Positions 1,677 through 50,683 of a DNA stretch of 64,000 nt are shown here, piece after piece. This stretch comes from Peribolospora baueri (taxonomy: Eukaryota): the NCBI GenBank assembly GCA_029717555.1, contig JAMDHS010000012.1, forward strand, positions 124,001 through 188,000, given 5' to 3'. The notes below the pieces were generated by a model that had not been told where the DNA came from, made no database searches, and saw only the letters and a program-made list of their open reading frames with translations. Each line of letters begins with the position of its first letter. Position 1 is the first letter of the stretch. A program made the translations under genes and the position numbers.

Positions 1677-2038
1677 TCAAATGTAACCGAGACTCTTGTA
1701 GCTGAAACCCGAGGGAGCAAAGAGGGGGGGTTTAACAGGGACGGGTGAGCATGGAGAAACTCTGGCAAAAGCACGGCGGCTCCCGTCACTCACACAGCGT
1801 CGGAAATGTAACTGGTTAGAAGAGGAAGGAAAGGAAGACAAGGAAGGAAGGAAGGAAGGAAGGAAAGGATGAGCGGTCCGTAGACTCGATGGGGGCCATG
1901 CTCTTCGATGATGATAAGGTCGTGCTCGCGGTCGCCGTGCTGGACACGGGGCACGCCGTTGCGCAAGGAGCGGGCAGGCTCGAGCGAGCCATGGGCGCGG
2001 ACTACTCACTCGTCGCGAGTGTTTTGAGCGAACACCAT
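1677..2038 (-). CDS. Spliced uORF encoding an arginine attenuator peptide (AAP) homologue, 23 aa
   Basis: Exons 2038-2010 (29 nt), 1811-1794 (18 nt) and 1701-1677 (25 nt), joined at GTGAGT...CAG introns, give MVFAQNTRDDYISDAVYKSLGYI*. This aligns with yeast CPA1 AAP (TCQDYISDHIWKT) and Neurospora arg-2 AAP (TSQDYLSDHLWRAL). The stop lies 78 nt upstream of the CPA1 ATG. Confidence 0.9.
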
Positions 2039-2992
2039 CGAGTGGTCGACGGGGAGGGCCGGGTGGAGAAGCTAAGAAGGCGGGAGGGTGCTGAGGTGGT
2101 GGTGGTGCGAAAGAGCGATGCAGAACGAAGAAGGGGTTCGTTTCGCTTGACTCTTCCTCGTCCCCCTTTTTTCTTCTTCCTCCATTCCGGCCGCTCCCAT
2201 TGGCTCCGGCGCGCAGGAGGACGCCTATCGCGGCCGCAAGTATACGTGTACCGCGCGTACGAAAGTACAAAAGTAGATTACGTGGATCGCAAGTGAGAGC
2301 GAACGTCGGATTACAGCCGCCGTAAGTGCGACATTGGCTTACGTGACCTGCGCCGCAAGTAGAGTATGCATATACGCAAAGTAGATTATCAGCGTGTGCA
2401 GCACTGCTGTCAGCCGGAGAGAGGCGAAGGCCGATCGGAAGAGAAGAGGCGGCAACAGGCAGACGAGCAGAGCAAAGAAAGACAGACAGGCAAGGCGACC
2501 GAAGACAAGACCCGCGCGAAGACCGACCGGACCGACCGTCGACCACCATCACCTCCTTGTGGACGACGAACGACGACGGAGACCATCCTCGTCTGACCCC
2601 CTCTTGCTATCCGTGAGTTACACCACCATCCACAGCTCCGCCCTGCCGTCGCCATAGCTCGCGGCGGGCGGGCGGACGGACGGACGAGCGCATGTGGACG
2701 GGAGGAAGGAGAGAAGGAAGGAGGGACAGAAGGAAGGAGTGAAGGACGGAAGGAAGGAAGGAAGGGAATAAGGAAGGATGCACGGATGACGAAGAGCGAG
2801 GCGAGAGAGGAGGAAGGGAAGGGAGGAGGAAGAACATGTCCGGCAGGCACATGACATGATGACCATTGCGCGCATGCAGAAAGAACCAGTCGCACTTCAC
2901 TCACCGCCGCGCCCATCTTGCTCGCCACCCTTCCCTCACAGCCCTCTCTTCCATCGTTCCTCCAGCACACGCAAGGGAACATCAGCTCCTTC

Positions 2993-5186
2993 ATGTCCAC
3001 AACCCCATCCGGCCAGCCGTCCCAGTCGACACAGGCGAATGCAAAACCGAGCCTAGCAGGCGTCAGGCTCAAGGCCAGGAAGGGCGTCCAGCGCTCCCAG
3101 GCAAAGTACGAACCAGACGGTGAGTGACGGCGTCGTCTCAACGATCCCTCGTCGGCTTCTGCGGTCGACCCCGCTTTGGATGCTTGCGTCCATGCATGGC
3201 AAGGTTCATCGATGGACGGATGGACGGATGGGTGGATGGGCCCACGTCTGCAGGAGGAAGGCCGGGTAATCGGAAAAGAGGGGGAGAGAGGGCCCGGGTT
3301 TGGAGGCCGGATCCCTTCGTTCCCTTAGACCTTGGAGCTCACCGGAGTCGTCGTCGTCTCACTCCCTGTCTGTCGCACAGTGTTCCGGGATCAACTCTAC
3401 AAGCAACTAGAATCAGTGCCCCCCTCCGACTTTGACGCCATCACTCTAAAGCTCGACCAAGCCGGCAACACCCTCGACTATCGCCGATATGCTGACCCGC
3501 TGTTCGAGATCTTCCTCGTCGGTGGCCTGCTCGCCCCTGGAGGGCAGTTCGTCGATGACGACGCCCCGCCTAGCCCTTTCAGCATCGCCAACGTCAAGGA
3601 ACCCGTTGACGTTGCAGAGGTGAAGAAATACATCGACGTTCTCAACAAGCTCATTCGGAGGTCAGTCGCCCGTTCGTCCCGACGGCCCTAGCGTATTTTG
3701 TTGCTTTCCCCTAGGCTGAACGGCCCCCGTCCCCCCCTCCATGTCTTCCATCCTCCCTGGACGCCCACAGGTACAAATACCTTCAGAAGCCTCTCGAGGA
3801 GTCGACGCTCAAAGGCGTGCTCCAGTACATCAACCGCTTCTCCAAGGAGCTCGACGAGAAACTGGCCATCGCCACAGCGCTCATGATGTCTACCGGTCTC
3901 GTCAGCGCCAGCGTTCTGTCCACCTTGCAGAAGGAACATCTGGTTAAAGATGGTGAGCGTTGTGGGTGCCTAATGGGGAGCCGGTCGTTGTGCGCCCGTA
4001 GATGTTTCGCATTCTTATCGAATGGGGCTCTCCCGCGTCAGACCTGGCACTCCACTTCATCGACCAGGTCTTCCGTACCTACCTGAACGAAGCTTCCATC
4101 GACCACCTTGCTGCGTCGCTGAAGCGGGGCGGCATCTACGATCTCCTCCTCTTTTGGCCCACCACCAAGCGCGACGATTCTTCCGTCGTCGTTCGCCACT
4201 TTAAGGAGGTCGGCTTGCCCCAGGTCGCTGAGCATTGGCAGAGGAGGCAGGTCAACGCGATCAAGGAGCAGACGTTGGAGGGGCTCAAGGAAATGGTCAG
4301 GAATGAAGAAGAGCCTAAGGACGTGAGTTTGAGCTTGGAGCTGTCTAGACGACTTTGGTGGGCGACCGCTCACCTCCCTTTGCCTATTTTCGCCGTCTTT
4401 GGGCCGGCAGATCATCGCGAACCTCAGGGGACAGCTTGCGGTTCACCCGATCGCCGAGCATGACTTTGTCTCCCTCGTCTGGCAGGGTCTCATGGACGGC
4501 GTCGATTGGAGCTCGAGGTCGGATCAGATCGAGGCTTTCTGTCTCAAGGAGGTGAACGTGAGTGGACAGGGGTGGATGGATTCGTTGGTTCAACGACCAC
4601 TTGGGCAGCGACGTGCTTTTCGAATCGCCTCGTGCCGTGCCGTGCCGTGCCGTGCCATGGCGAACCATTTGCTCACTTTTGTCCGTGACTCGACGGCCCG
4701 GTCAGAAAAACTCGCCGATCTTGGAAGCGTTCACAAAGGGCGCGCGTACCGAAGTGGCGCTCATCTGCGCGATTCAGGTGTACTGCTACGAGGACACGAG
4801 GATCATCAAGACGTTCCCTCAGATCTTGAAGGTGAGTGGTCGGAGTCGGTGAACCGGACCGGGGGTGAGTGAAGTGCTGACGGTTTGCGGTTTTTCGTCG
4901 TTCGGCTCGGCTGGCAGGTACTGTACAACCGCGACGTGATTTCGGACCAAGCGATCCTGTACTGGGCGCAGAAGGGCTCGAAGCCGCAGGGAAGGCAGCA
5001 CTTCCTCAAGGCGACTGAGCTGCTGGTCAAGGTGCGTTTCGGTGTATGGCGAGGCGAGCTCGCTATCGTGCCGTCTAAGCGTCGGTTTCGGTCTATGGGT
5101 CGGACGTCATTGACTCGACCATCGTCTCATGACCGATCCAGTTCCTCCAAGAGCAGGACGACAGCGACGAAGAGGAGGAGGAGTAG
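2993..5186 (+). CDS. eIF5-mimic protein (5MP/BZW family, C-terminal W2 domain), multi-exon
   Basis: Exon translations KPSLAGVRLKARKG...YEPD, VFRDQL...LDYRRYADPLFEIFLVGGLLAPGG, LICAIQVYCYED and LYNRDVISDQAILYWAQKGSKPQGRQHFLK, plus an acidic tail (FLQEQDDSDEEEEE*), match BZW1/2 (5MP). Confidence 0.9.
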
Positions 5187-5415
5187 GAGCGGACTGCGAC
5201 GTGAAGCGTTCGATTTGCAGGAGCACCCGCCGGTGGGAGGCGAGCGAGCTTGGAAGGGGTACCTCGGCGTCATCGTCATGGTGATACGGTCCGGTAGGAC
5301 GTGAAGGATGCGGGGAGAAAGAGGAGGTGACTTGTAACGGATGTGTCGGTTTGAATGTCCATCGGAGGTGTGCTCCACAAAAATCGTCCCATCCTCGTTT
5401 GACACACAGTCCAAT

Positions 5416-10566: not shown

Positions 10567-11926
10567 TCAAGCAAACACGTTCCTGTCCGCAAGCTCATCC
10601 TCAGGCAACCGAACAGCCTCCATCTTCCTCTTCCTCTCCTCTTCCGCCGCCTTGCGCTCGCCAAACTTGGTACCCTTGGCCAGGCGTTGTTGGTGTCGGA
10701 TGGCGTTGGGGGAGACGTATTCTGTAAGGGGTGTCCAGATCAAGTCAGTCACGCTTCCGGGGGCCGTAAAGAGAAAGAGAGAAAGAAAGAAAGAAAGAAG
10801 AAAAAAAGAAAAAGAAAAAGAAAAAGCAAAAAAGCTCACCAGAATTTTCAAACACGACAGCGCCATTGAAAGACCCTTCAAAGATCTTGATGGGCGTCAA
10901 GACGAGACGCGGCCCAATCTCTGTTAGCGTTGTCTTTGGCGTTGGCTTGTCCCTGCCTTTTTTCTTTCCCTTGCCCTTCTCCTTGGTCTTGCCCTCGCCG
11001 TCCTCGTCTTCGCCATCGACATCGGTAAAGCCGGCATGAGTATCTTTCTCAATGATTTGAAAGTTGCGGAACCATATCTTGTTGTCCACCCAGGAGAAAC
11101 TGAGGACGTGGTCGACGAACGGCTTGGATCGTCGAGCGCTTTTGGGCACGCCGAAGATCTGTGGACGGAGGTGGCGGTGGAGGAGAAGAAGAGCAAGTCA
11201 ATAAAAACCAAACAAGCACGACACGGGCCGGCCGGCAAAAATCAAAGAACCACGACATGGAAAGGGAGAGGGAGGACCAAAGCTCGCAGCGCCCTTTATC
11301 AGACCCGCTCATCCATCGACACTCACATGCGACAGGAGCTCCTTCATCAATCGCAGATGCGGCTGGCCATCAAACGTCTTGTCAAAACTCAACAACGGCC
11401 GACTGCCCTTGAGACAGTTGCCCGTCATCTTCAGCTCGTCCATGGTGTGAATGTTCTGAACGTGCATCTTGACGCTCGGTCCGTTTGGCGTTTTGGACAT
11501 CCACATGTAGAGGTCCTGGTGCCGGCGCGCCTCAAAGTAGAGCGTGTTGTTGCAGTTGTACAGCTCGGCCAGCTCGTTGAGCATCAGTAGGTTCGACTTG
11601 GAGTCCAGCTTGGAATCTGGCGCCGCGGGGCGAGGTAGACATGTCAGACGGCCAGCTCTCGTTTCGTTGACGTGACGACCGATGTCCGCATGCTCACCTT
11701 TCTTGGCGTGAGGCATCAGCGCCTCGAGATCGTTCATCAAGTGTCTCATACGAAAGGTGATCCCCCTCGAAGACAAGAGTAGCACCCTCTGCTTGTTCTT
11801 TTTTAACGGCGCCGTCCCGCCGCCCACCACCACATCCTCCAGATCCCCCTCCGCCTTGCGCTTCCCCTTCTCCTTTGCCTTGAGTTTGGCCTCGTTCTTC
11901 TTTTGAGCTGCGAGCACGGTGGCCAT
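10567..11926 (-). CDS. BRX1: Ribosome biogenesis protein Brx1 (Brix domain), multi-exon
   Basis: KQRVLLLSSRGITFRMRHLMNDL, LNELAELYNCNNTLYFEARRHQDLYMWMSKTPNGPS, HTMDELKMTGNCLKGSRP, KSARRSKPFVDHV and EIGPRLVLTPIKIFEGSF. Confidence 0.95.
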
Positions 11927-12228
11927 GACGGGTTGATATGAATGCTTCGTCGTCTCCCTCCGCCCATCCGTGTCGCATCGCGAAGACGACCCAAAAGCTG
12001 CGGCAAGTGCGGGGTTCCCACGGTCAGCGAGCGCACTGGCCGCGATCGCCCATCTTGACCTTGACCTGCCAGTCCCAAGTCGAAGGCGGCGGCCCACTCC
12101 CCACCCGAAGCTCCCCTAGGCATCGCACCGCTTCGCTCGCTCGAGCGGCCAATGCATCCTCTCCATCACCTCAATTTTTTGCAGGTGCTTCGCTCAACCC
12201 GAGTGCAGACGCGGCACTGATGCGTGCC

Positions 12229-15200
12229 ATGGCTTCGCCCAACGGCCGCCAGTCCTCGTCTCCCAACGGCGGCCCCCACCCTTACCGACTCGAAAACGAA
12301 GACGAAGCCGGGCCCACGAGCCGAGGGGAAGATGATCTGGTTGGAAAGAAGGTGGCCAGCGGGGCCGGCGATGGTGGTCTGAGCAATGATCTGGCAGACC
12401 CAGGAAGCGCGCGCGACGAGGATGAAGATGAGCAGTTCGTCTACCCCGGCGACGACGCGGCCGAAGTGGAAGAGGAAGAGGAGGCGTTCACCTACAAGAC
12501 GAGGGTGGATGAGGTCTTACCGGATGAGGAGGGGGAGGCCAGTAGCGAGGTTGCTCGTCGAATGGCTGCGGACGAGGACAGTGACGAGGAGGTTCGGTAC
12601 CGTCGTCAAGTCGGCGAAGAAGAACGGGACGACGAGTCCGTGTCTTCTCGCACCGTGGATGACAGGCCGGGCATGGGAGTAGTGAGTGTACGGCGGAACG
12701 TCTGCTTCACAACGGTCCTGTCTCTGATCACGACATTGGCTTCACTTGGCTCTTTACCCGCAGGCTCCCTCCTCCATCTCGTCAGCCAACGGAGGGCAGT
12801 CCAGACCGCAATCCTACATCTCCCTCGACGAATCGTCCGCCTTTGGTGGCGATACTTCTCAGTACTCTCCTCTGCCCCCCCTGCGCCCCGCCATGCACCC
12901 TTCCGTGTCTCGTCTGCGCTCTGCCTTTTCTCGCAATTCGTCGGCCGTGTCCGTGATATCCTCCAACCCCAGAAGCGCCTCGTTCAGCTCCTTTGCTTCG
13001 TTGCGCGGCCCCTCCGCACCGCAGAACATGCGCATGCCGTCCACGCCGTCGATGTCTTCCCTAAAGACTTCCGCATCTATTCTTCCGCTATTCCCATACG
13101 CCTCCTCGGACGAGAAAGGCAAATCCCCGGAAACACCCGCCAGCCCAATGACCCCAACGTCGACGTATGACGCGCAGCTCCGACGGGATCCATTCCAGTT
13201 CTCCCCGCTTCGGAGCTTGTCTGCTCAGATTTACCCGGTGTCCAAAGCCGCCAAGCTCACGGCGTTGAACGCTTATGGTACTCCCACCGTCATGGCAGTT
13301 AGTGGCGTTATTGCCGTCGGTACGAGCAGGGGCTGGGTGATGGTCTTCGAGTACAATCAAGACCTACGATGCATATGCGGCACAGATAGTCTAGGTGAGC
13401 CTTGCTTGAGTCTGGGTCGTGTCACCCCTTTCGTCCTCCAAGCGCTAAACTTTTACTTACTCTTATTCGCCAGCGAAAGAAAGCGGCGCTGTGACGGCGC
13501 TGGCCATCAGCCACGACCACACCTTTGTCGGTGTCGGTCACGAAAGGGGACACGTCCGCTTGTATGAGTTGCAGAAACCCAACGTCCCAGCTCGTTCCGT
13601 CGCGCCCGTCACCCGGGCCGAAGTGGCCTCTGGTCGACGCGAGGGTCATCTCGCAGGCTCCAAGATCTTGCACATTGCCTTTGTTGCCGCTCGTCACACC
13701 GCCATCGTTACCGCAGACGAATACGGCTTGAGTTTCTATCACGCGCTCGGCAAAGTCCTCATGGTCTCCGCCAACGACACCCTGCGCATCCTTGGACGCT
13801 ATCCGGATCCGCTTCCGTCACGACCTATCCCAGACGGCCATCGCAGGCCACCACGTAAACCTTCGACTATCTTTGCCATGGCACCCTTGCCGTTGGGGCT
13901 TGTTCCGCACATGGCCGAGCGGTATCAGTTCATCGCACTCCTGACGCCAGCCAAGCTCGTCATTGTAGGCCTCAAGCCCGCGCCTCGGACATGGTTTCGC
14001 CGCATGGCTCCCAGAGGCGTCCGAGGAGGCGGTATCGGCAAGGCGTCGGGCCTGCAAACGGAGACTGGTGCGGCGAACGGTGCTCCGGGCGAGATGGCTA
14101 GGGACGAGGCGATCGACGGCTTTCGCGAGGCTTTCTTACGGAGCGACTCATTAGACGCTGAACCTGCGGACGACGAGTTGGCAGGAACCCTCGCCTGGTA
14201 CCCGAGCCGCGAGCTCAAAGGAAACGACGCGTCGACTCTGACCTCGGACAAGACCTCGGAAGGCGCCACTTTTTCATCCCTTGGTCCTGTCCTCGCCTAT
14301 TCGTTCGGCCGTCGTATTTTCATCTTACACTTCGCTGTCGTCAAGGTGCAGAAGCGGCAGGCGGGCGCGACGCCCCCAAACGGTTCGGAAACCCCGCGGC
14401 GCTCTGAACCTGAGGCGCAACGGGTTGATATACGGGAAGGGCAATCGTTCCAAGAGGAGGACACAGTTGTGGCTATGCAGTGGTTGTCTCAACATGTGTG
14501 TCCACGTCCGCGTATGAGTCCAAACGCAGCGGCCGGTCCGAAGCTCACGATTGTTCTCTTGATACTATGCACAGCTGCTCCTCGTCATGACGCGCCAATC
14601 CCTCTCCCTTTACGACCTTCGCAAGGGCTCTCGCTCCGAGAAGCAAGGCCTGGATTTCTGGACACATGACGTACTTGCCCACGACTGGTATCGCAGGGCT
14701 CTGCGCGGCCGTGGTAGCGGAACAGACGAGGATGATCAAGCTCGAGTGGCCGAATCAAGGGCTCATAGTTTTCGTTGTTACAAGGGAAAGGTTTTCCTTC
14801 TGGTGAGTCGCTATAGCCGGTATTCTCGGGCACACATGTACCGTAAACTGACACACAATCAATAACCTCGTCTCGAAGACGCGGACAGGCGTCCTCGTCG
14901 GTACGCTGGTCTCGTGGGCGGATCGCATCCTGGCTTGCGTTCGAAAGGGCGATTTCTTGCAAGCCATCGACTTGGCGACATCCTTCTACACTGGCGAGGC
15001 AGACGGTTCAACCGTTGGCCTCCCGGACGATCGCGACAGAGTGCAGGCCATTGTGGGCGAGAAACTGCGAAGCCTCATGACTGCATCTGTCCAGTACGCG
15101 TTTGCGGAAGAGCGCATGACGGACGGCACGCACGACTCACCGGATGGCCGAGGCGTGGACCGAACGCCGCTGTTCGAGGGCCTAGTTGCAACGGTGGCTC

Positions 15201-17932
15201 GCGCTTGCCTGGCTCTCAACCACTGGGACTTTCTCTTTGAGGACCTTTATGAGCGATACCGGGAGAACGGCATCCAGGGTATCTTCGTTTCTCAGCTGGA
15301 ACCCTTCGTCATGAACGGCTTCGTTCGCCAAGTACCGCCCAACATCGTACAGCAGCTCATCCAGTATCACGCCACGCGAGAGCAGTACGACCGAGCGGAA
15401 ACTATCATCTGGCATGTGGACCCTCTTTGCCTCGACCTTGATCAGGCACTAAGTCTCTGCCAGACACACCGGCTCTACGATGCTCTCATTTACGTCTATA
15501 CTCGCGCCATACGCGACTTCGTGTCCCCTGTCGTCGAGCTCCTCGGGCTGATCCGGCAGGTTCAACGGAGTCGAAGACAACGTCCGCGACGAGTGGGCGA
15601 TGCCAATGGCGACGCCAGCATGGACACTTCCATCGAGGCGATGGAGGCGGCCGCGAGAAACGCGTACAAGCTGTTTCGCTACCTTTCCGATGTCCTCACT
15701 GGACTCGAGTACCCCAGCCAGGAACCATTGTCAGAGGAGGAAGCGCTTACGGCCAAGTCGACCATCTACTCGTTTTTCTTCTCCGGACACACAGTCCGTT
15801 GGCCACCAGGCGCCAGTGGGCGGGATGTTCCGGCGTCAGAGGAAGATGGGGAGCCCGAGTCCACTTACCCTTACCTTCGACTCGTGGTGCGCTTCGATGC
15901 CGAAGCGTTCCTGGACGCTCTGGACAGCGCCTTCGAGGACTCTTTCCTCAACGACGATGCCGCTAACAAGCATGTCAACCGGCAACTCATTGTCAATATC
16001 CTCCTCGACATCATGGACTCGTCAGGGTTCACGCCATCGGACATCACCTTTCTTCAAATTTTCGTCGCACGCAACCTGCCTAAATACCCCCAGTTCGTCC
16101 TTCTTAAACCTTCAATATTGCATCGTCTCCTCGTCGGTCTGACAGTCAGTCCGGACCAAAGCACACGGGACGATCGCCAGCTGGCGGTGGAATACCTGCT
16201 TTCCGTCTACACACCCCATGATGGGGACCGCATACTGGAGCTGTTCGAGAGGGCTGGCTTCTTCCGCATTCTTCGATCGGCATACCGATCTGAAAAGGCG
16301 TGGGGGAGCCTCCTCTCGACGTACCTGCGCGATCCGGACGTCGGCAACGACATTTTCATTCACGCCGCCGACGTCCTTGCGATGAGCTCTCGAGATAGCA
16401 AGCAGGTTGACCGAGAAGCTTCCCTGACCGTTATGGATGCGGTCCCGCAATTGATCGACGCCGGCGTTCGACAGACGGCCATCCTGGTCGATCGCTTCCT
16501 CCCCGAACTGCATGATGACGTCGTGAGCCGTCTCGCCGATTCCGAGCACAAGCAGTTCGCTTATCTGCGTTGCTTCTTGGAGCCGGAGGCGAGCTTGGAC
16601 GAGGCGGAGGAGCAGGCAGGGGATGAGCCGCTTCTGGGAAACTCTGGTCTGCAGCAAGCAGCCGATCATCTCAACACTGCCGCTCGCAGCCTCTACATCA
16701 CGCTGCTCAGCAGACATGACCCGCGCGGCGTTTTGCGTAACCTCGATGCGCAGCCACGAGACTTCTTCGACCTCGAGCATGTCGTCTCGACATGTCGAGA
16801 TGGAGAGGTGTTCGACGCCATGCTGTGGGCTATTGATCGGCAGGGGGAGCCGATGGCTGCTTTCGATGCTCTCGATGAGGTTGTCTCAAGTCTTACGCAA
16901 CTCCTCACGAAAGCGCTTTATAATGAGGAGGCTACGGCCGTCGCGGAAGCCCGAGCACGGCAGCAACGGCTTCTGGAGCAGCTACAGAGTGTGGCGAGCA
17001 TGGGCGCACGGCTATGCGTCGAGCACTCGAAGCTCGTTCCGCAGCCCTCTGATTTCCACAGCGGTGAACTTTGGTTCCGCCTACTCCACAGCCTCGTTCA
17101 CCTCGTGCAAGCTGTCGCTCAGACCTGCCAGCCGTTGGCCGGGCCCGATTGGGTGGTCATGAGCAATGAGGAGAAAGTTCGAGCACAGCAAGCGGCAGAG
17201 GTCCTCGAACAGTGCCGCGGCTTCATGCAACAGTCACTCTCTTCCCTAGTAAGCACCACTTCAACGTCTTCAATATCGTTTCCCCTACTCTTCAAGCGAC
17301 TCGTCGAGGCTGGCAGCTCGATCCACCAGGACGATTCGTACTCATTCTCCGACGACGCGCCGCGGGGTGGCTTCTACGCCGAGTTCCGATCGATTCTATC
17401 TGGGATGTTGGACACGTACCGTCACGAGGAGAACCTTTTGCGAATCACCAACCGCCTTTTCGATCGGGACCTCTTCAACCACGTCGAGGAGCTACACGTT
17501 CAGAGGCTGCGCGGTTGGAGGATGAAAGGCTCCAGGGGGGCGCCACCGGCGTGCGCAAAATGCGGAGAAGTGATTGGCGAACCGGTTTCTGGAGGACGAA
17601 AGGCCGCTCGGGGTTGGCAGAGATTGGAACCATTGACGCCGCGAACCCCACACACGCCTCGGACACCTCGGACACCCAACGGGCATCCGCCCGTCTCACC
17701 TGGCTTCGTCGACAAGGGCAAAGCTGTCGATCGCACCGGCACCTCGCAGACGTATTACGACGAGCAGGAGGGTTTCCGGTGGGATCGCCGACCGTCGCAT
17801 CACGAGGAAGAGGAAGAGGGAGAGGACGATCTGGAAGATCATGCGGTAGTCATACTCATGAATGGGGTTGTCTATCATCGTCGCTGCGTCCCAGCGGATC
17901 TGGCCATGCGGATAGATGAGCAGCGGCAGTGA
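12229..17932 (+). CDS. VPS8: CORVET complex subunit Vps8 (WD40 region, CHCR repeat, degenerate C-terminal RING), multi-exon
   Basis: PTVMAVSGVIAVGTSRGWVMVFEYNQ, ALAISHDHTFVGVGH, GHLAGSKILHIAFV, ALLTPAKLVIVGLKP, CLDLDQALSLCQTHRLYDALIYVY, YPYLRLVVRFDAEAFLDALDSAFEDSFLND and RQLAVEYLLSVY. The start is inferred from a good-context ATG (GCCATGG). Confidence 0.9.
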
Positions 17933-26659: not shown

Positions 26660-29600
26660 ATGTCGACGTGAGTACTTAGTCTCCCTCAACACAACGAAGC
26701 AGACAGTGGTCGAGGACCCATACCAGTTGATTTCCTCTAACCTGCTCCCACATCTGTTTCGTGTCTACTCGTGCGGCTCCGTGCCCTACTTACAGCTACG
26801 AGAAAGTCGTCAAGGCGGCCACCAAGCCCAAACACGCGCCGCCCAAGGCAAAGTACATCGACCCCATCCTCGCCGCCACTTTTTCACATGATGGAAGTTT
26901 ACAGGACATTTGCAAGGCGCTCTCAGCGCGCTTGCGGGAGCCGAACGTTACGGTGAGTTCACCGTATTTGCCGTCATCGGTGTCTGTGCAGGAGTGCTCT
27001 GGCTTTTCCTTTGCACCTTTCCGGCATCCTGATATCTTGCCCCGTCCTGTTCATCTGATTGACAGGTCGTCTTCAAATCGCTCATTGTTCTTCACACGAT
27101 GATCCGCAACGGCTCCTGCGAGAATGTGCTTGGCTATCTGGCCTCGGAAGCGCATAGTCTTAGACTCAAGGCTGTAGTATCAGGGTCGTGGTCGGGTAGG
27201 TGTCCACCGGACAACGTCCAAGCACTGTTTTCGTCTGTCAGTCGCTCACTGTTTTCTACTCCCCCTCTCCTCCCAGGCTACGCCCCGCCAGCGAACATCT
27301 CCTTTTACGCCAAGTACCTCGACGAGCGCATCCGGGCTTTCCGCGAGCTCCGACACGACGTCATTCGCGACCGAGCGGAGTCGTCACGCTTGTCATCCCG
27401 CGTCAACGGGTACGATGGCGATGAAGGGACGAGCAACCGTCTGCGACGGCTCACCGTCGAGAAAGGCTTGGTACGGGAGGTTGCGGTCCTACAGAAAGTT
27501 TGCGATAGTCTGGTCGAGTGCAAGGTGGGGGCCCGGGTCCCGTTCAAGGCATGATTCGTCGTGTCTGGGTCGTCGTGGTGATGAGCTCACGTAGTCGACC
27601 CCTCGTCATCCTGTCATCCCGCTGCGGCGCAGTTCTTCATGGACGACATCGAAGACGACGTGACTTTGACCGCCTTCCGCATGGTGCTCAAGGACCTGCT
27701 GGCCTTGTTCACCGCCCTGAACGAAGGCGTCATTAACATCCTCGGTAAGCCGTTGCCATTGACCTGGTCACAAACGCTCCGTGCTTGCGCTGACCATTCT
27801 CTACCCAAAACTTGGTCTGGATAGAGCATTACTTTGAAATGTCTCACGTCGACGCGACGCGGGCACTCGATATCTACAAGAGGTTCTGTCGCCAGACCGA
27901 AAAGGTCGTGGGCTACTTCACTTTCGCTAAGAACATGCATACTACCATCAACGTGGCCATTCCGAACTTGAAACACGTAAGTACCCAGATTTAGTCACAG
28001 TCCATGTAGGTGGGATGCCTCGAGCTGATTGCAATGCGTGACTTTCCTCGCGCTGCAATAGGCCCCTGTGTCCCTTGGCAAAGCGCTCCAAGAGTACCTG
28101 GACGACCCGAACTTTGAGCAGAACCGATCGGAATACAAGGAGAACAAGAAGGTCTCTGACAAGGCTTCTTCGCGCGGCAGCGGCCCTAGCACGAGCGCTA
28201 CGGCGGCAAGTAGCGAGAGGGCTGCAGCTGTTAAGGCCGCGAATGCTGCGTCGAAGAGGGGTGAGTCGCGCACAAAGAGCCACCTTAGGCCTTGCTAGTC
28301 ACCTTGTGGTCTAATGAGCCCTTGCCGTTCGTCTCCGAGCAGTAACGATTGCCGAGCCGGAAAAGCCGGTACGAACAAATACTTCCAAGACTGCGCCGAG
28401 CTCGAACAAGGAGCTGGTCGACTTTTTCACGTCCATCGAGAGTGAACAGACGGACATGTTCAATCCTGCTGGCCAGCCGAATCTACAGCCCCAAATGACA
28501 GGCTTCACAGGCGGCGCAAACGCATTTAATCCGTTCGGGATGGGAATGGGGCCAGCGGGTCTGCAGCCCCAGATAACGGGAGTACCGTTCGGTGGCGGCG
28601 TGCAGCCTCAAATGACGGGCTTCCAGGGGCAGTCCCCGTTCGTGCAGCCTCAACAGACCGGCTTCCCAATGCAACAGCAGCACCATCCCATGCAGATGCC
28701 ATTTTCTGGCGTTGTCCAGCCTCAGCCAACGGGCTTTAACCCTTTCCGTCAAAGCATGATGCCGACCGGCATGGGCATGAGCATGGGAGGGAGCTCCCCG
28801 TTCGGCGTCAGTCCTTTCAGCCCATCTACCCCCAACTCAGCTCCGCCAACTGGTTTCCAGCAACCGCAACAAACGGGCGCGACCACTGGGGCGTCCCTCT
28901 TCGGAGCCTTTGGTGGTGGCGCTTCCAACAGCCCGCAGACGTCCGGGTTGGTCACTTCTCCATTTAGCGCCGCCCCGCCGTCTATGCCTGCGCAACCCGC
29001 CATCTCCTCGTCGGCCCCAGCTTCTGCATCTGGTGCGCCCGGTGGAACCTCCACGCCCGCCCTCCAACCGCAAAAGACTGGATCTCGAAACCCGTTCAAC
29101 CCGCCGCCCGGGGAGACTCCTCCGCCTCCTCCGCCGCCGACGAGTACCGGCCCGAGCTTGAACGACTTGGCGATGAACGCGTTTAGCGGTGGACAAGGGC
29201 AAGGACATGGTGCCTTTGGTGGGCAGCAGCAGACGCCATCGTCTTCGGCGCTCGCGTCTCAGAAGACAGGAATGGGGGCGAGTCTATTTGGGCAACCAAC
29301 AGGGATGGGGTCGAGTCTGTTCGGCCAGCCGACTGGGGCCCCGCAGGCGTGGCCATCGTCATCAGCATCGGCGCTTGGGCCTCAGCAGACAGGTATGGGG
29401 GCGAGTCTCTTTGGGCAGCCAACTGCCTTGGGAACGGGGTTGTCGCCGGCGTCCGGGCTTCCACCTCGTCCTGCCTCTGCGGCTCAAGCGCAGCAGACAC
29501 CCTCGGCCGCGCCATCGTTGACGCCTCACAAGACGGGCATCCCAAGCGCCACCAGCAACTTCTTCTTCTCTCGGCCTGTGGCTTCGCCTATGCCTGGCTC

Positions 29601-34511: not shown

Positions 34512-37472
<2,961 letters not shown>

Positions 37473-47867: not shown

Positions 47868-50683
47868 ATGCACCGCGTCCTTGCCCGAGCGCACAGGCCA
47901 ACAGCCCAGGCCGACGTCCTCTCCTCGCGCCCGGCACAGCGACGCGGACGGCGACGACGCCTGCCGCTCGTCGTCCTCCCTGTCATTCTCGCCGCCTTCG
48001 CCGCCCTCCTCCTCTCCTACATCCCCCCACCCACCCAAGCCACAGCAGGCAAAGGGCCAGGCCAGCCCGCCTTTCCCGCCACGCCCCTTGACCCCATTAC
48101 GAGCGCCTCCAAGCGCACCGCCTTCATTCAAGACGTCCTTGACAAGGAGCCCGGACAGAACATTTGCAGCGTGCGTCCGCCTAGGCCCGCGGTTCGCGCC
48201 CTCGCCCCCTTCCTAGATGGTCATCATCCGTAGCTAACCATGTTCATTCCTATCCTCATCCATCAATCCATCTGTCCGTTTCCAGCCCACCGGCCAGATC
48301 CAAGACGCCTGCTGCGATTTTGAGACAGTTGAGCAGCTCAACACGAAGCTTTTCGGACAGCTGTCCGACCTCGTGCAGTCGAGATATTTCCGATACTACA
48401 AGGTGACTGCCCGTGCCGTATTTCCTTCCTCTCCCATCTTGTTCTCCACTTGCTTACACTCCAACTCCCTCAGGTCGATCTCTTCCGCGACTGTCCCTTC
48501 TGGGTCGAAAACGGCTTGTGCATGAACCGCGCCTGTGGCGTCGAGACAGCCGACGAGTCCGAGGTCCCCGAGATGTGGAGGGGCGAGGCGCTCAGCGGCG
48601 TCAAGACGGCCTCCGAGGAGGAGGTGCGTGTCGGCGTCACGTTCGGTGGGCGCAAACCCCTAGGATAGCTCTCGTGCTCATCCCTTACATCATTCTCTTA
48701 AAAGGTCTTCGGAGGTCGTTCCCCCGTGTGTCACTACAAGGATCAAGATTTTTGCGAGATTGAAGACGAGTCCAACCAAGGTGAGCTAGCCGGCGATCGT
48801 CGCCTCGCTCTGGCCATCGGCCGGCTTTTTCGGCTGATACCCTTTTCCCCTTCTCGTTTGCCCGTGGCGGCGCAGAGAGCGTTTACGTCGACCTGATCGC
48901 CAACCCGGAGCGCTTCACAGGCTACGCCGGCGCTTCGGCGAATCGAGTGTGGAAGTCGATCTACGAGGAGAACTGCTTCGGCGCCGTCCCCTTCCTCGCC
49001 CCCGCTCGTTCCTCGGACTCGGGTGGATCCGGATTCATAGACCGACGACTCCTCTCCAACGCAGGCGCCGGCGCCGGCGCTAAAACCTCTTCTGAATCCG
49101 GAAAAGCGGACTTGGGAAGCTCGTTAGCCCCCGGCGCTGGCGGGTTGCACAGCTTGTTGGCGAGCTTGGAGGCGCCGAGGGACACGCAGGACGAGGAGGT
49201 CTGTCTAGAGAAGAGGGTGTACTACCGGATCATCTCTGGTGAGCCTCGGTTTTAGCCCGACGATGTCGAAGATACAACCCCGTCTCTGAACTACGATTCG
49301 TTTCTGCTTCTAGGCTTGCACGCTTCCATCTCCATCCATATCTGCCACGAGTACCTCAACCAAACCACCGGCGAATGGGTGAGCGTCCCGATACGTCTCC
49401 GTATCCCCTCACCAAACCCATCTTTTCTCATGCCTCTCATTTCTTCATTACTCTTCCCCCGCTTAGACGCCCAATCTGGAATGCTTCCTCACTCGCATAG
49501 CCGAGCACCCAGAACGCCTCGAGAACGTCTACTTCAACTACGGTCTTCTCGTGCGCGCCCTGGCGCGTGCCGGAGAGTACATCGAGCACTTTGACCTCAA
49601 GGCCGGAGATGAGATTCAGGACCGGGAGACGAAAGAAAAGCTAGAGGCGATCGTGGCGACGGCTAAGGATTGTCCGACGACGTTTGATGAGAAGAGCATG
49701 TTTGTTGGCGAGAACGCTTCGGTGAGCCGGCTGGACGACCGAACTTTTTCTTTTTTGTTATCTCGGTTTTTCTGACGCCGCCCCGCCCTGCCCCGCCCCG
49801 GTCATAGATACTCAAGGAGCAATTCAAGACACATTTCCGAAACGTCTCCACCATCATGGATTGCGTCGGCTGCGACAAGTGTAGGCTCTGGGGAAAGCTT
49901 CAGGTCAGCGGCTTGGGAACGGCACTCAAGATTTTGTTCAGCTATGAGGAGGCTGAGTTTGAGTGAGTGACGGCCGGTTATTCGTCTCGTTCCGCCCGTA
50001 TTCGTCTCATCACCTTGCCACCCTGCTGCAGTCCGAAAGTAAACCCGACGCTGCTGCAGCGCTCCGAGCTCGTGGCGCTCATCAACACACTCCACCGCTT
50101 TTCCGAGTCCCTCCACGCCGTAGATGCCTTCCGACACCTCTACCAGGACGCCCTCGCCGAGATTGAGGCGGCGGAGAGGGCCGAGCAGGCGGCGGCGGCG
50201 GAGGAGAAAAGGCTCGCAGGTTCGGACTCGTCGTTGGGCGGTGCGAACGTGTCGAATGCGCAAGGACGGCTGGCTCGAGCGGTGGCCGCTGACGACCAAG
50301 GATGCGGAGACGACGCGGCGGACGGTGACGGGAAGGAGGGGAGCGATCGGCGGGTGCGACGACGGTGCGCGTGCAACGCCACCTCCACCCTCTCCTCCAG
50401 GCTCTCCTTGCTTCTTCACCTTGGCGGCGGCAACGAAAACCACGGACCGCTCTCCCTCCTCGAGCACTACTCGCCCTTCTCCCTCCTCTCTTCCCTCCTC
50501 GACGCCTGCTCCTTCTCTTCCCTCGACGCCTGCATGCGCAAAGGCGCGCAACGCGGCGCAGAGATTTGGCAGGCCCTCCTCGATCGCACGCGCACGCGCA
50601 CGCGCTCGGCGAGCGGCCGGGATGGAGGAGCGTGGACGGGATCGACGGTGAGGACACCGAGGAGGGGCGAGGGCGAGCTGTAG
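47868..50683 (+). CDS. ERO1: Endoplasmic reticulum oxidoreductin 1, multi-exon
   Basis: Signal anchor, [77 protein letters not shown], the active-site [16 protein letters not shown] and [20 protein letters not shown]. The protein ends GEGEL. Confidence 0.96.

Follow-up and report, generated by a model that had tools for sequence, protein, structure and literature searches.

The CPA1 gene and its surroundings

We analysed a stretch of 64,000 nucleotides, called here the window, in which a minus-strand ORF of 477 codons occupies positions 165-1598. This ORF is intronless and has an A at position -3 of its ATG, and Pfam recognises in it the two domains CPSase_sm_chain (1.2e-42) and GATase (4.6e-43). 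The 120 relatives listed for the encoded protein are all 62-72% identical to it; the named ones that could be recognised are basidiomycete, the best of them (62-72% identity) being annotated as "carbamoyl-phosphate synthase arginine-specific small chain", and several in the list bear either the name arginine-specific small chain or CPA1. By domain content and homology, the ORF running from 1598 to 165 is CPA1, the glutamine-amidotransferase small subunit of the arginine-specific carbamoyl-phosphate synthase. In a CPA1 tree, obtained by a quick search and rooted at the midpoint, the window protein forms a long branch that falls outside the Agaricomycotina and Microbotryomycetes sampled, a position with weak support (SH-aLRT 85), and no taxon is drawn from this tree beyond that of a basidiomycete without a close match among the named proteins.

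The leader of CPA1 holds a short uORF whose start codon begins at 2038. An ATG map of the mRNA strand is empty between 2185 and 2038, which leaves an ATG-free stretch 5' of the uORF start (2039-2184, minus strand), the probable site of transcription initiation and of the beginning of the leader. Still farther 5', a promoter-like stretch (2203-2345, minus strand) has the motif CACGTA three times (at 2345, 2284 and 2248) and a CCAAT box twice (at 2337 and 2203); a TATA match was looked for in the promoter-like stretch and none was found. One GAGTCA, the reverse of the TGACTC core of Gcn4/Cpc1 sites, occurs at 2153 on the minus strand. The CACGTA, CCAAT and GAGTCA motifs could be elements of amino-acid control.

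The divergent neighbour of CPA1 (3329-5301, plus strand) is a gene of the 5MP/BZW type, an eIF5-mimic, and is itself a regulator of translation initiation. It is split by several short introns, with Pfam matches to HEAT_5MP1_2 in three successive frames and to W2. Elsewhere in the window, Pfam identified a Brix-domain protein (11312-12115, minus strand) and, on the plus strand, Vps8 (14852-17929), an ANTH-domain protein (27063-27551), a fused ATP-sulfurylase/APS-kinase (36067-37288) and ERO1 (48333-49772). A Pfam family was matched by 12 of the 77 stop-to-stop segments of the window that were tested.

Architecture of the uORF

An earlier note on this DNA had assembled the uORF from three exons on the minus strand. 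All its coordinates hold to the base, and joining the exons by script reproduces the 23-residue peptide exactly. Exon 1 (2010-2038, with the ATG at 2038-2036) comprises 9 2/3 codons and ends in Thr-Arg-Asp-GA (GAC GA). It is followed by intron 1 (1812-2009), which is 198 nt long, has the borders GTGAGT...CAG and lies in phase 2 in the Asp codon before Tyr. Exon 2 (1794-1811) is a microexon of 18 nt encoding the peptide core Y-I-S-D-A-V, its first and last codons both being split by introns. The predicted intron 2 (1702-1793), of 92 nt and again with the borders GTGAGT...CAG, interrupts a Val codon in phase 2, and exon 3 (1677-1701) closes the frame with Y-K-S-L-G-Y-I as tail and TGA (1679-1677) as stop codon. 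From this stop to the start of CPA1, which was identified as such by Pfam, we measured an ATG-free spacer of 78 nt (1599-1676), the same distance that had been reported before.

Without splicing, the frame of the uORF stops after 10 codons. Removal of both introns leaves the leader from 2184 to 1598 with the uORF AUG as its sole upstream AUG; three more are present before splicing, all of them intronic (1992 and 1899 in intron 1, 1752 in intron 2). The start contexts are also as claimed: a U stands at -3 of the uORF AUG (CACTCGATGG) and an A at -3 of the CPA1 AUG (AGCAGAATGA). The arrangement is the same in five of five sequences, where position -3 is a U for the uORF and a purine for CPA1. 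A weak uORF start followed by a strong main start fits leaky scanning.

Homologous uORFs in related CPA1 leaders

Metagenome contigs were scanned with the CPA1 protein, and 65 loci were obtained. Seven of them (L001-L007) are fungal-like, with 60-67% identity, and the rest reach at most 36%. L007 begins inside CPA1, and hence six loci (L001-L006) have upstream sequence; since L004, L005 and L006 are near-identical, these six represent four distinct sequences. Among named proteins, those nearest to them come from Agaricomycetes (Armillaria, Mucidula, Ganoderma, Hohenbuehelia), with an identity of about 75-83%. In all six, a frame with Y-L-S-D-L-V-F is present just 5' of CPA1. The uORFs of these relatives have 22 codons, end 7-21 nt before CPA1 and share with the window both the N-terminal half and the core. 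L001 is a contig of 1,435 nt in which the uORF and the CPA1 match are both contiguous, the uORF (nt 37-105) reading MLFTQSTRDDYLSDLVFSLLPF; L002, L003 and L004-L006 are genomic, and their 22-codon uORF is broken by a single intron of 49-55 nt.

A profile was built from the four distinct Agaricomycete uORF peptides and compared with virtual peptides of 10-40 residues, enumerated by starting at every ATG of the 1-kb leader and allowing at most two GT-AG introns of 40-300 nt. The 23-codon uORF peptide scored 33.1 bits, at the top of the 1,265 virtual peptides of the leader, and the best of 982,480 control peptides, derived in the same window from 123 other 1-kb segments on both strands, scored 12.0 bits. 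Because of this distance from the control maximum, we conclude from the profile comparison that the uORF is real and not a chance assembly. GT and AG dinucleotides are plentiful in a GC-rich leader, and with 1,265 virtual peptides in the leader alone a functionless GT-AG combination might be expected to turn up; but neither the score nor the fact that the relatives have an intron at the same place agrees with such an origin, whose probability we regard as negligible and which, as far as sequence alone allows, is refuted.

The contribution of the exons to the score is uneven. Exon 1 joined to unrelated sequence gives about 20 bits, the addition of exon 2 brings the score to 33.0 bits, and exon 3 adds just 0.1 bit. 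A model of 16 codons, in which only intron 1 is removed, scores 33.0 bits against the 33.1 bits of the 23-codon model, so the profile test backs exons 1 and 2 and is silent on exon 3.

Exon 1 is conserved with the relatives as M-x-F-[TA]-[QA]-[NS]-T-R-D-D, and 11-12 of the first 17 residues of the window uORF are identical to those of the relatives, by a manual count from the codon table. At the nucleotide level, the codons vary: across the five sequences the conserved Arg is encoded by CGC, CGG, AGG, AGA and CGT and the Val by GTC, GTG, GTA, GTT and GTG, and the Ser of the core is TCC in the window and AGT or AGC in the relatives. Since the residues were kept despite this turnover of the Arg, Ser and Val codons, selection, as read from the codon comparison, is on the peptide and not on the RNA. 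The N-terminal half and the D-Y-[IL]-S-D core have been kept between basidiomycete lineages whose CPA1 proteins are about 66% identical.

Intron 1

The place and the phase of intron 1 are identical in five of five genomic relatives (L002, L003 and L004-L006), where the junction reads GAC GA|GT...AG|Y TAC. In the alignment, L001, which is transcript-like, is without exactly the GT...CAG segment that L002, L003 and L004 contain; to judge from this alignment, L001 shows splicing at the place of intron 1 in a relative, not in this organism. Considering both the intron of the relatives and the conserved in-frame core that follows the CAG at 1812, there is little doubt that the predicted intron 1 is real. 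The proposal that the CPA1 leader has a uORF of the arginine-attenuator type which needs splicing is borne out by the homology with the uORFs of the relatives, by the conservation of intron 1 and by its lack in L001.

The length of intron 1 is 198 nt here as against 49-55 nt in the relatives. Two (AGGA)n tracts of the plus strand, which are (TCCT)n on the CPA1 strand, were observed at 1823-1865 and at 2703-2778; the former is the pyrimidine tract of intron 1 and the latter belongs to the shared promoter region, some 700 nt farther upstream. An expansion of the 1823-1865 repeat may explain the length of the intron. Near its 3' end the sole exact match to CTRAY is CTAAC at 1819-1815, only 4 nt from the acceptor G, and in other candidate introns of the window CTRAY motifs are found about 25-30 nt upstream of the acceptor. 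As CTAAC is far nearer to the acceptor than the motifs of these introns, the working branch point is more likely CTCAT, a weaker site that precedes the (TCCT)n tract by position and lies about 58 nt upstream; between it and the acceptor, a gap filled by the (TCCT)n tract, there is no AG. We also considered an acceptor at the AG 1790-1789 with CTAAC as branch point and rejected it, as it would skip the conserved core.

Concerning the number of introns, the coding region of CPA1 has none in this genome, versus two predicted ones in its 72-nt uORF. In L002 the CPA1 match exceeds its matched residues by about 120 nt, an indication of coding-region introns in that locus, against one intron in the L002 uORF; in this respect the intronless CPA1 coding region of the window differs from that of L002. 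CPA1 taken together with its uORF is a case of strongly 5'-biased intron retention within one gene, and the uORF intron has here outlasted all the introns of the CPA1 coding region.

Intron 2 and exon 3

No counterpart of intron 2 was found among L001-L006, and its removal is predicted, with good confidence on our side, from consensus signals, from an acceptor at the first available AG and from the aromatic residue that the splice restores. The donor GTGAGT sits directly after the peptide core. This hexamer occurs 46 times on both strands of the 64-kb window, or about once per 2.8 kb of strand, and many of the occurrences are probably real donors. Counting from 40 nt past the donor, the first AG met is the acceptor at 1702, and, of nine acceptors within 300 nt, it alone puts an aromatic residue in register with the relatives' Phe and yields a length of 20-26 codons. 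Exon 3 puts a Tyr at this place. In ascomycete AAPs a basic residue (Arg or Lys) follows the aromatic one, and Lys is found in the window uORF; we take the Tyr-then-Lys after the intron 2 junction to resemble this aromatic-then-basic pair. The length of intron 2 (92 nt) and its donor also resemble the other candidate introns of the window, a weak support, as the norm used (GTGAG[C/A/T] donors, about 90-110 nt) is a rough impression gained from genes split in the Pfam search.

The alternative is that the uORF is real and only intron 1 is removed. If intron 2 is retained, a TGA inside its own donor (1792-1790) ends the uORF at 16 codons, 191 nt before CPA1; both the aromatic residue and the tail are then lost, and what remains could be a plain, perhaps arginine-insensitive, barrier or a decaying attenuator. 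This shorter uORF fits the profile as well as the longer one (33.0 bits), and the relatives offer no intron at the place of intron 2. On the other hand, a perfect consensus donor right after the core is unlikely to arise by chance at the frequency given above, even with real donors included in the count, and the earliest AG 40 nt or more past it restores an aromatic residue at the relatives' Phe and gives 23 codons, compared with 22 in the relatives. With retention, the leader would also keep a further AUG (1752), and only 6 residues would lie from the critical Asp to the stop, where all four relatives have 12. We consider the 16-codon uORF unlikely.

A further combination was noticed in this region. 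Joining the intron 2 donor (1793) to the CAG at 1602-1600 fuses the first 16 codons of the uORF in frame to the whole of CPA1. This 1793-to-1599 fusion was rejected: its acceptor is not the first AG, one of three acceptors would be in frame by chance, and the fusion is probably meaningless.

Key residues of the attenuator peptide

The earlier note had aligned the peptide to the Neurospora numbering, and soundly so. Its reading of Q11>D, H17>A and W19>Y as divergent residues does not survive the comparison with the relatives, as all four distinct relatives carry Asp, Leu and Phe at these places. Judged by this alignment, Asp-11, a residue other than His at 17 and an aromatic residue other than Trp at 19 make up the basidiomycete form and do not set this genome apart. 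In ascomycetes, His-17 belongs to the AAP consensus. Neither His-17 nor Trp-19 of the Neurospora AAP is present in these peptides: the window has Ala and Tyr, the four relatives Leu and Phe. The alignment with CPA1 leaders of related basidiomycetes, which had been put forward as a check, gave a homologous uORF in six of six loci and at the same time residues that are not specific to this genome.

What is specific to the window, with respect to the relatives, is Ala for Leu at 17 and Tyr for Phe at 19, as well as the layout of the uORF, with a predicted second intron that would create the 18-nt microexon, the 198-nt intron 1 and a spacer of 78 nt versus 7-21 nt. With intron 2 removed, 13 residues separate the critical Asp from the stop, one more than in any of the four relatives. 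The conserved core, made of the critical Asp and then Tyr-[Ile/Leu]-Ser-Asp, is present across the junction of exons 1 and 2.

When the contiguous uORF of L001 (22 residues) was submitted to Pfam, no family was reported at E up to 10, a search in which the HMMER filters lose weak matches of short peptides. The Pfam family of the AAP is, we assume, PF08252 Leader_CPA1, and by that profile the basidiomycete form, judged by the L001 peptide, would fall outside the AAP family as curated. A sequence search of the PDB with the same L001 peptide returned no chain, and a text search of the literature for two peptide strings returned no match. By its position, core, predicted length and start contexts, and by its homology among basidiomycetes, the uORF is nevertheless the same device as the AAP.

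It could be argued that the uORF is spliced and conserved and yet blind to arginine, His-17 and Trp-19 having been replaced, so that it represses CPA1 constitutively or answers another signal. In the available part of PMC3299997, Trp-19 is named as important for stalling, and Asp-12 and Trp-19 are placed near elements of the tunnel; the failure of the Pfam AAP model to recognise the peptide of a relative (L001) goes in the same direction. Against it, the peptide, and not merely an open frame, has been kept with respect to the Agaricomycetes despite synonymous turnover, as predicted for a peptide that acts inside the ribosome. The D-Y-[IL]-S-D core is also kept, together with the Asp whose change to Asn (Asp-12 in Neurospora) abolishes the arginine response, according to the accessible text of PMC7038982. 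Moreover, the portion of PMC7049704 at our disposal states, citing Hood et al. 2007, that in a cell-free system from Neurospora a reporter was repressed by orthologous uORF peptides, apparently with the Cryptococcus homologue among them. An arginine-blind peptide seems to us, on balance, quite improbable, and arginine-dependent attenuation by the spliced uORF is the reading followed below.

Comparison with known attenuators and proposed mechanism

When arginine is scarce, ribosomes largely pass over the uORF of yeast CPA1 and of Neurospora arg-2; when it is abundant, the nascent peptide makes the ribosome stall on the stop codon of the uORF, which blocks scanning and triggers nonsense-mediated decay (excerpts of PMC11550727, PMC7038982 and PMC3299997). 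The window uORF resembles the AAPs of Neurospora crassa arg-2 and Saccharomyces cerevisiae CPA1 in lying in the leader of the orthologous gene, in its predicted length of little over 20 codons, in the D-Y-[IL]-S-D core with a Thr three positions ahead of the critical Asp, in an aromatic residue three places after the last Asp of the core, and in having a weak uORF start and a strong main start. By analogy with what the excerpts of PMC11550727 and PMC7038982 describe, an arginine-dependent stall at the uORF stop, blocked scanning and nonsense-mediated decay would be expected here too. Unlike the Neurospora AAP, the window peptide has Asp for Gln before the critical Asp, Ala for His and Tyr for Trp, and, unlike in arg-2 and yeast CPA1, its coding sequence would be split by two introns. 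Both ascomycete AAPs have 12 residues after the critical Asp, whereas the window has 13.

With the Agaricomycete uORFs of L001-L006 the window shares the N-terminal half M-x-F-[TA]-Q-[NS]-T-R-D-D, the core, Asp for Gln-11, a residue other than His at 17, a non-Trp aromatic residue at 19 and the U at -3, and with the genomic ones (L002-L006) also the intron inside the Asp codon. It differs from them in Ala for Leu, in Tyr for Phe and in a tail that is one residue longer and contains Lys; in addition, intron 1 measures 198 instead of 49-55 nt, a second intron is predicted and the spacer is 78 instead of 7-21 nt. For other basidiomycetes, the comparison is one of presence: the sections available of PMC12230235 mention a putative AAP homologue in Coprinopsis cinerea, and those of PMC7049704 a CPA1 uORF that is conserved and ribosome-occupied in two species of Cryptococcus, with CPA1 mRNA up 5-fold in a upf1 mutant.

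The following mechanism can be proposed. The pre-mRNA would start upstream of 2038, and splicing would remove the old intron 1, kept at the same codon as in Agaricomycetes, and the lineage-specific intron 2, making of the 18-nt exon 2 a microexon that carries the peptide core. The mature leader would then have a single upstream AUG in a weak context. At low arginine many scanning ribosomes would bypass this AUG, and those translating the uORF would terminate and leave, with the result that CPA1 is produced. Under high arginine the emerging peptide, with its Thr-Arg-Asp-Asp-Tyr-Ile-Ser-Asp and aromatic residue, would hold the ribosome at the uORF stop codon; the stalled ribosome would block scanning, reducing CPA1 translation, and the mRNA would probably be exposed to nonsense-mediated decay. 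Taken as a whole, a basidiomycete AAP uORF in the CPA1 leader, with both introns removed and arginine-dependent attenuation, is what we believe to be likely, intron 2 removal, the transcription start and the stall being its inferred parts. By analogy with the ascomycete peptides an arginine response may be expected of this peptide but is not assured, because Tyr stands for Trp-19 and Ala for the His adjoining the core.

The location of the core on a putative microexon suggests one more possibility, namely that splicing sets the strength of the arginine response of CPA1 by switching the nascent-peptide sensor off. Skipping of exon 2 keeps the frame and gives a uORF of 17 codons without the core. 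If this were true, exon 2 skipping or intron 2 retention would free CPA1 from arginine-specific repression with the uORF still in place. An override of a nascent-peptide sensor at the level of splicing is not described in the searchable literature, and we regard such a switch as speculative and very improbable.

Significance

The attenuator peptide is among the best-studied nascent chains that sense a small molecule inside the ribosome. Basidiomycete arginine attenuator uORFs are already in print, and the present one is a fairly ordinary example that opens no new question; its 18-nt microexon is a curiosity of its own. A uORF that, like this one, comes into being only through splicing will be overlooked by automated annotation. 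The suggestion of the earlier note that this uORF is a natural variant with which the contacts needed for arginine sensing might be mapped is reasonable, but the idea is not new, considering the Cryptococcus CPA1 uORF reported in the text available from PMC7049704. In the basidiomycete peptides the place of His-17 is taken by Leu or Ala and that of Trp-19 by Phe or Tyr. Should these peptides stall with arginine, an aromatic ring would be enough at position 19 and His-17 would be dispensable, which would narrow the contacts that matter.
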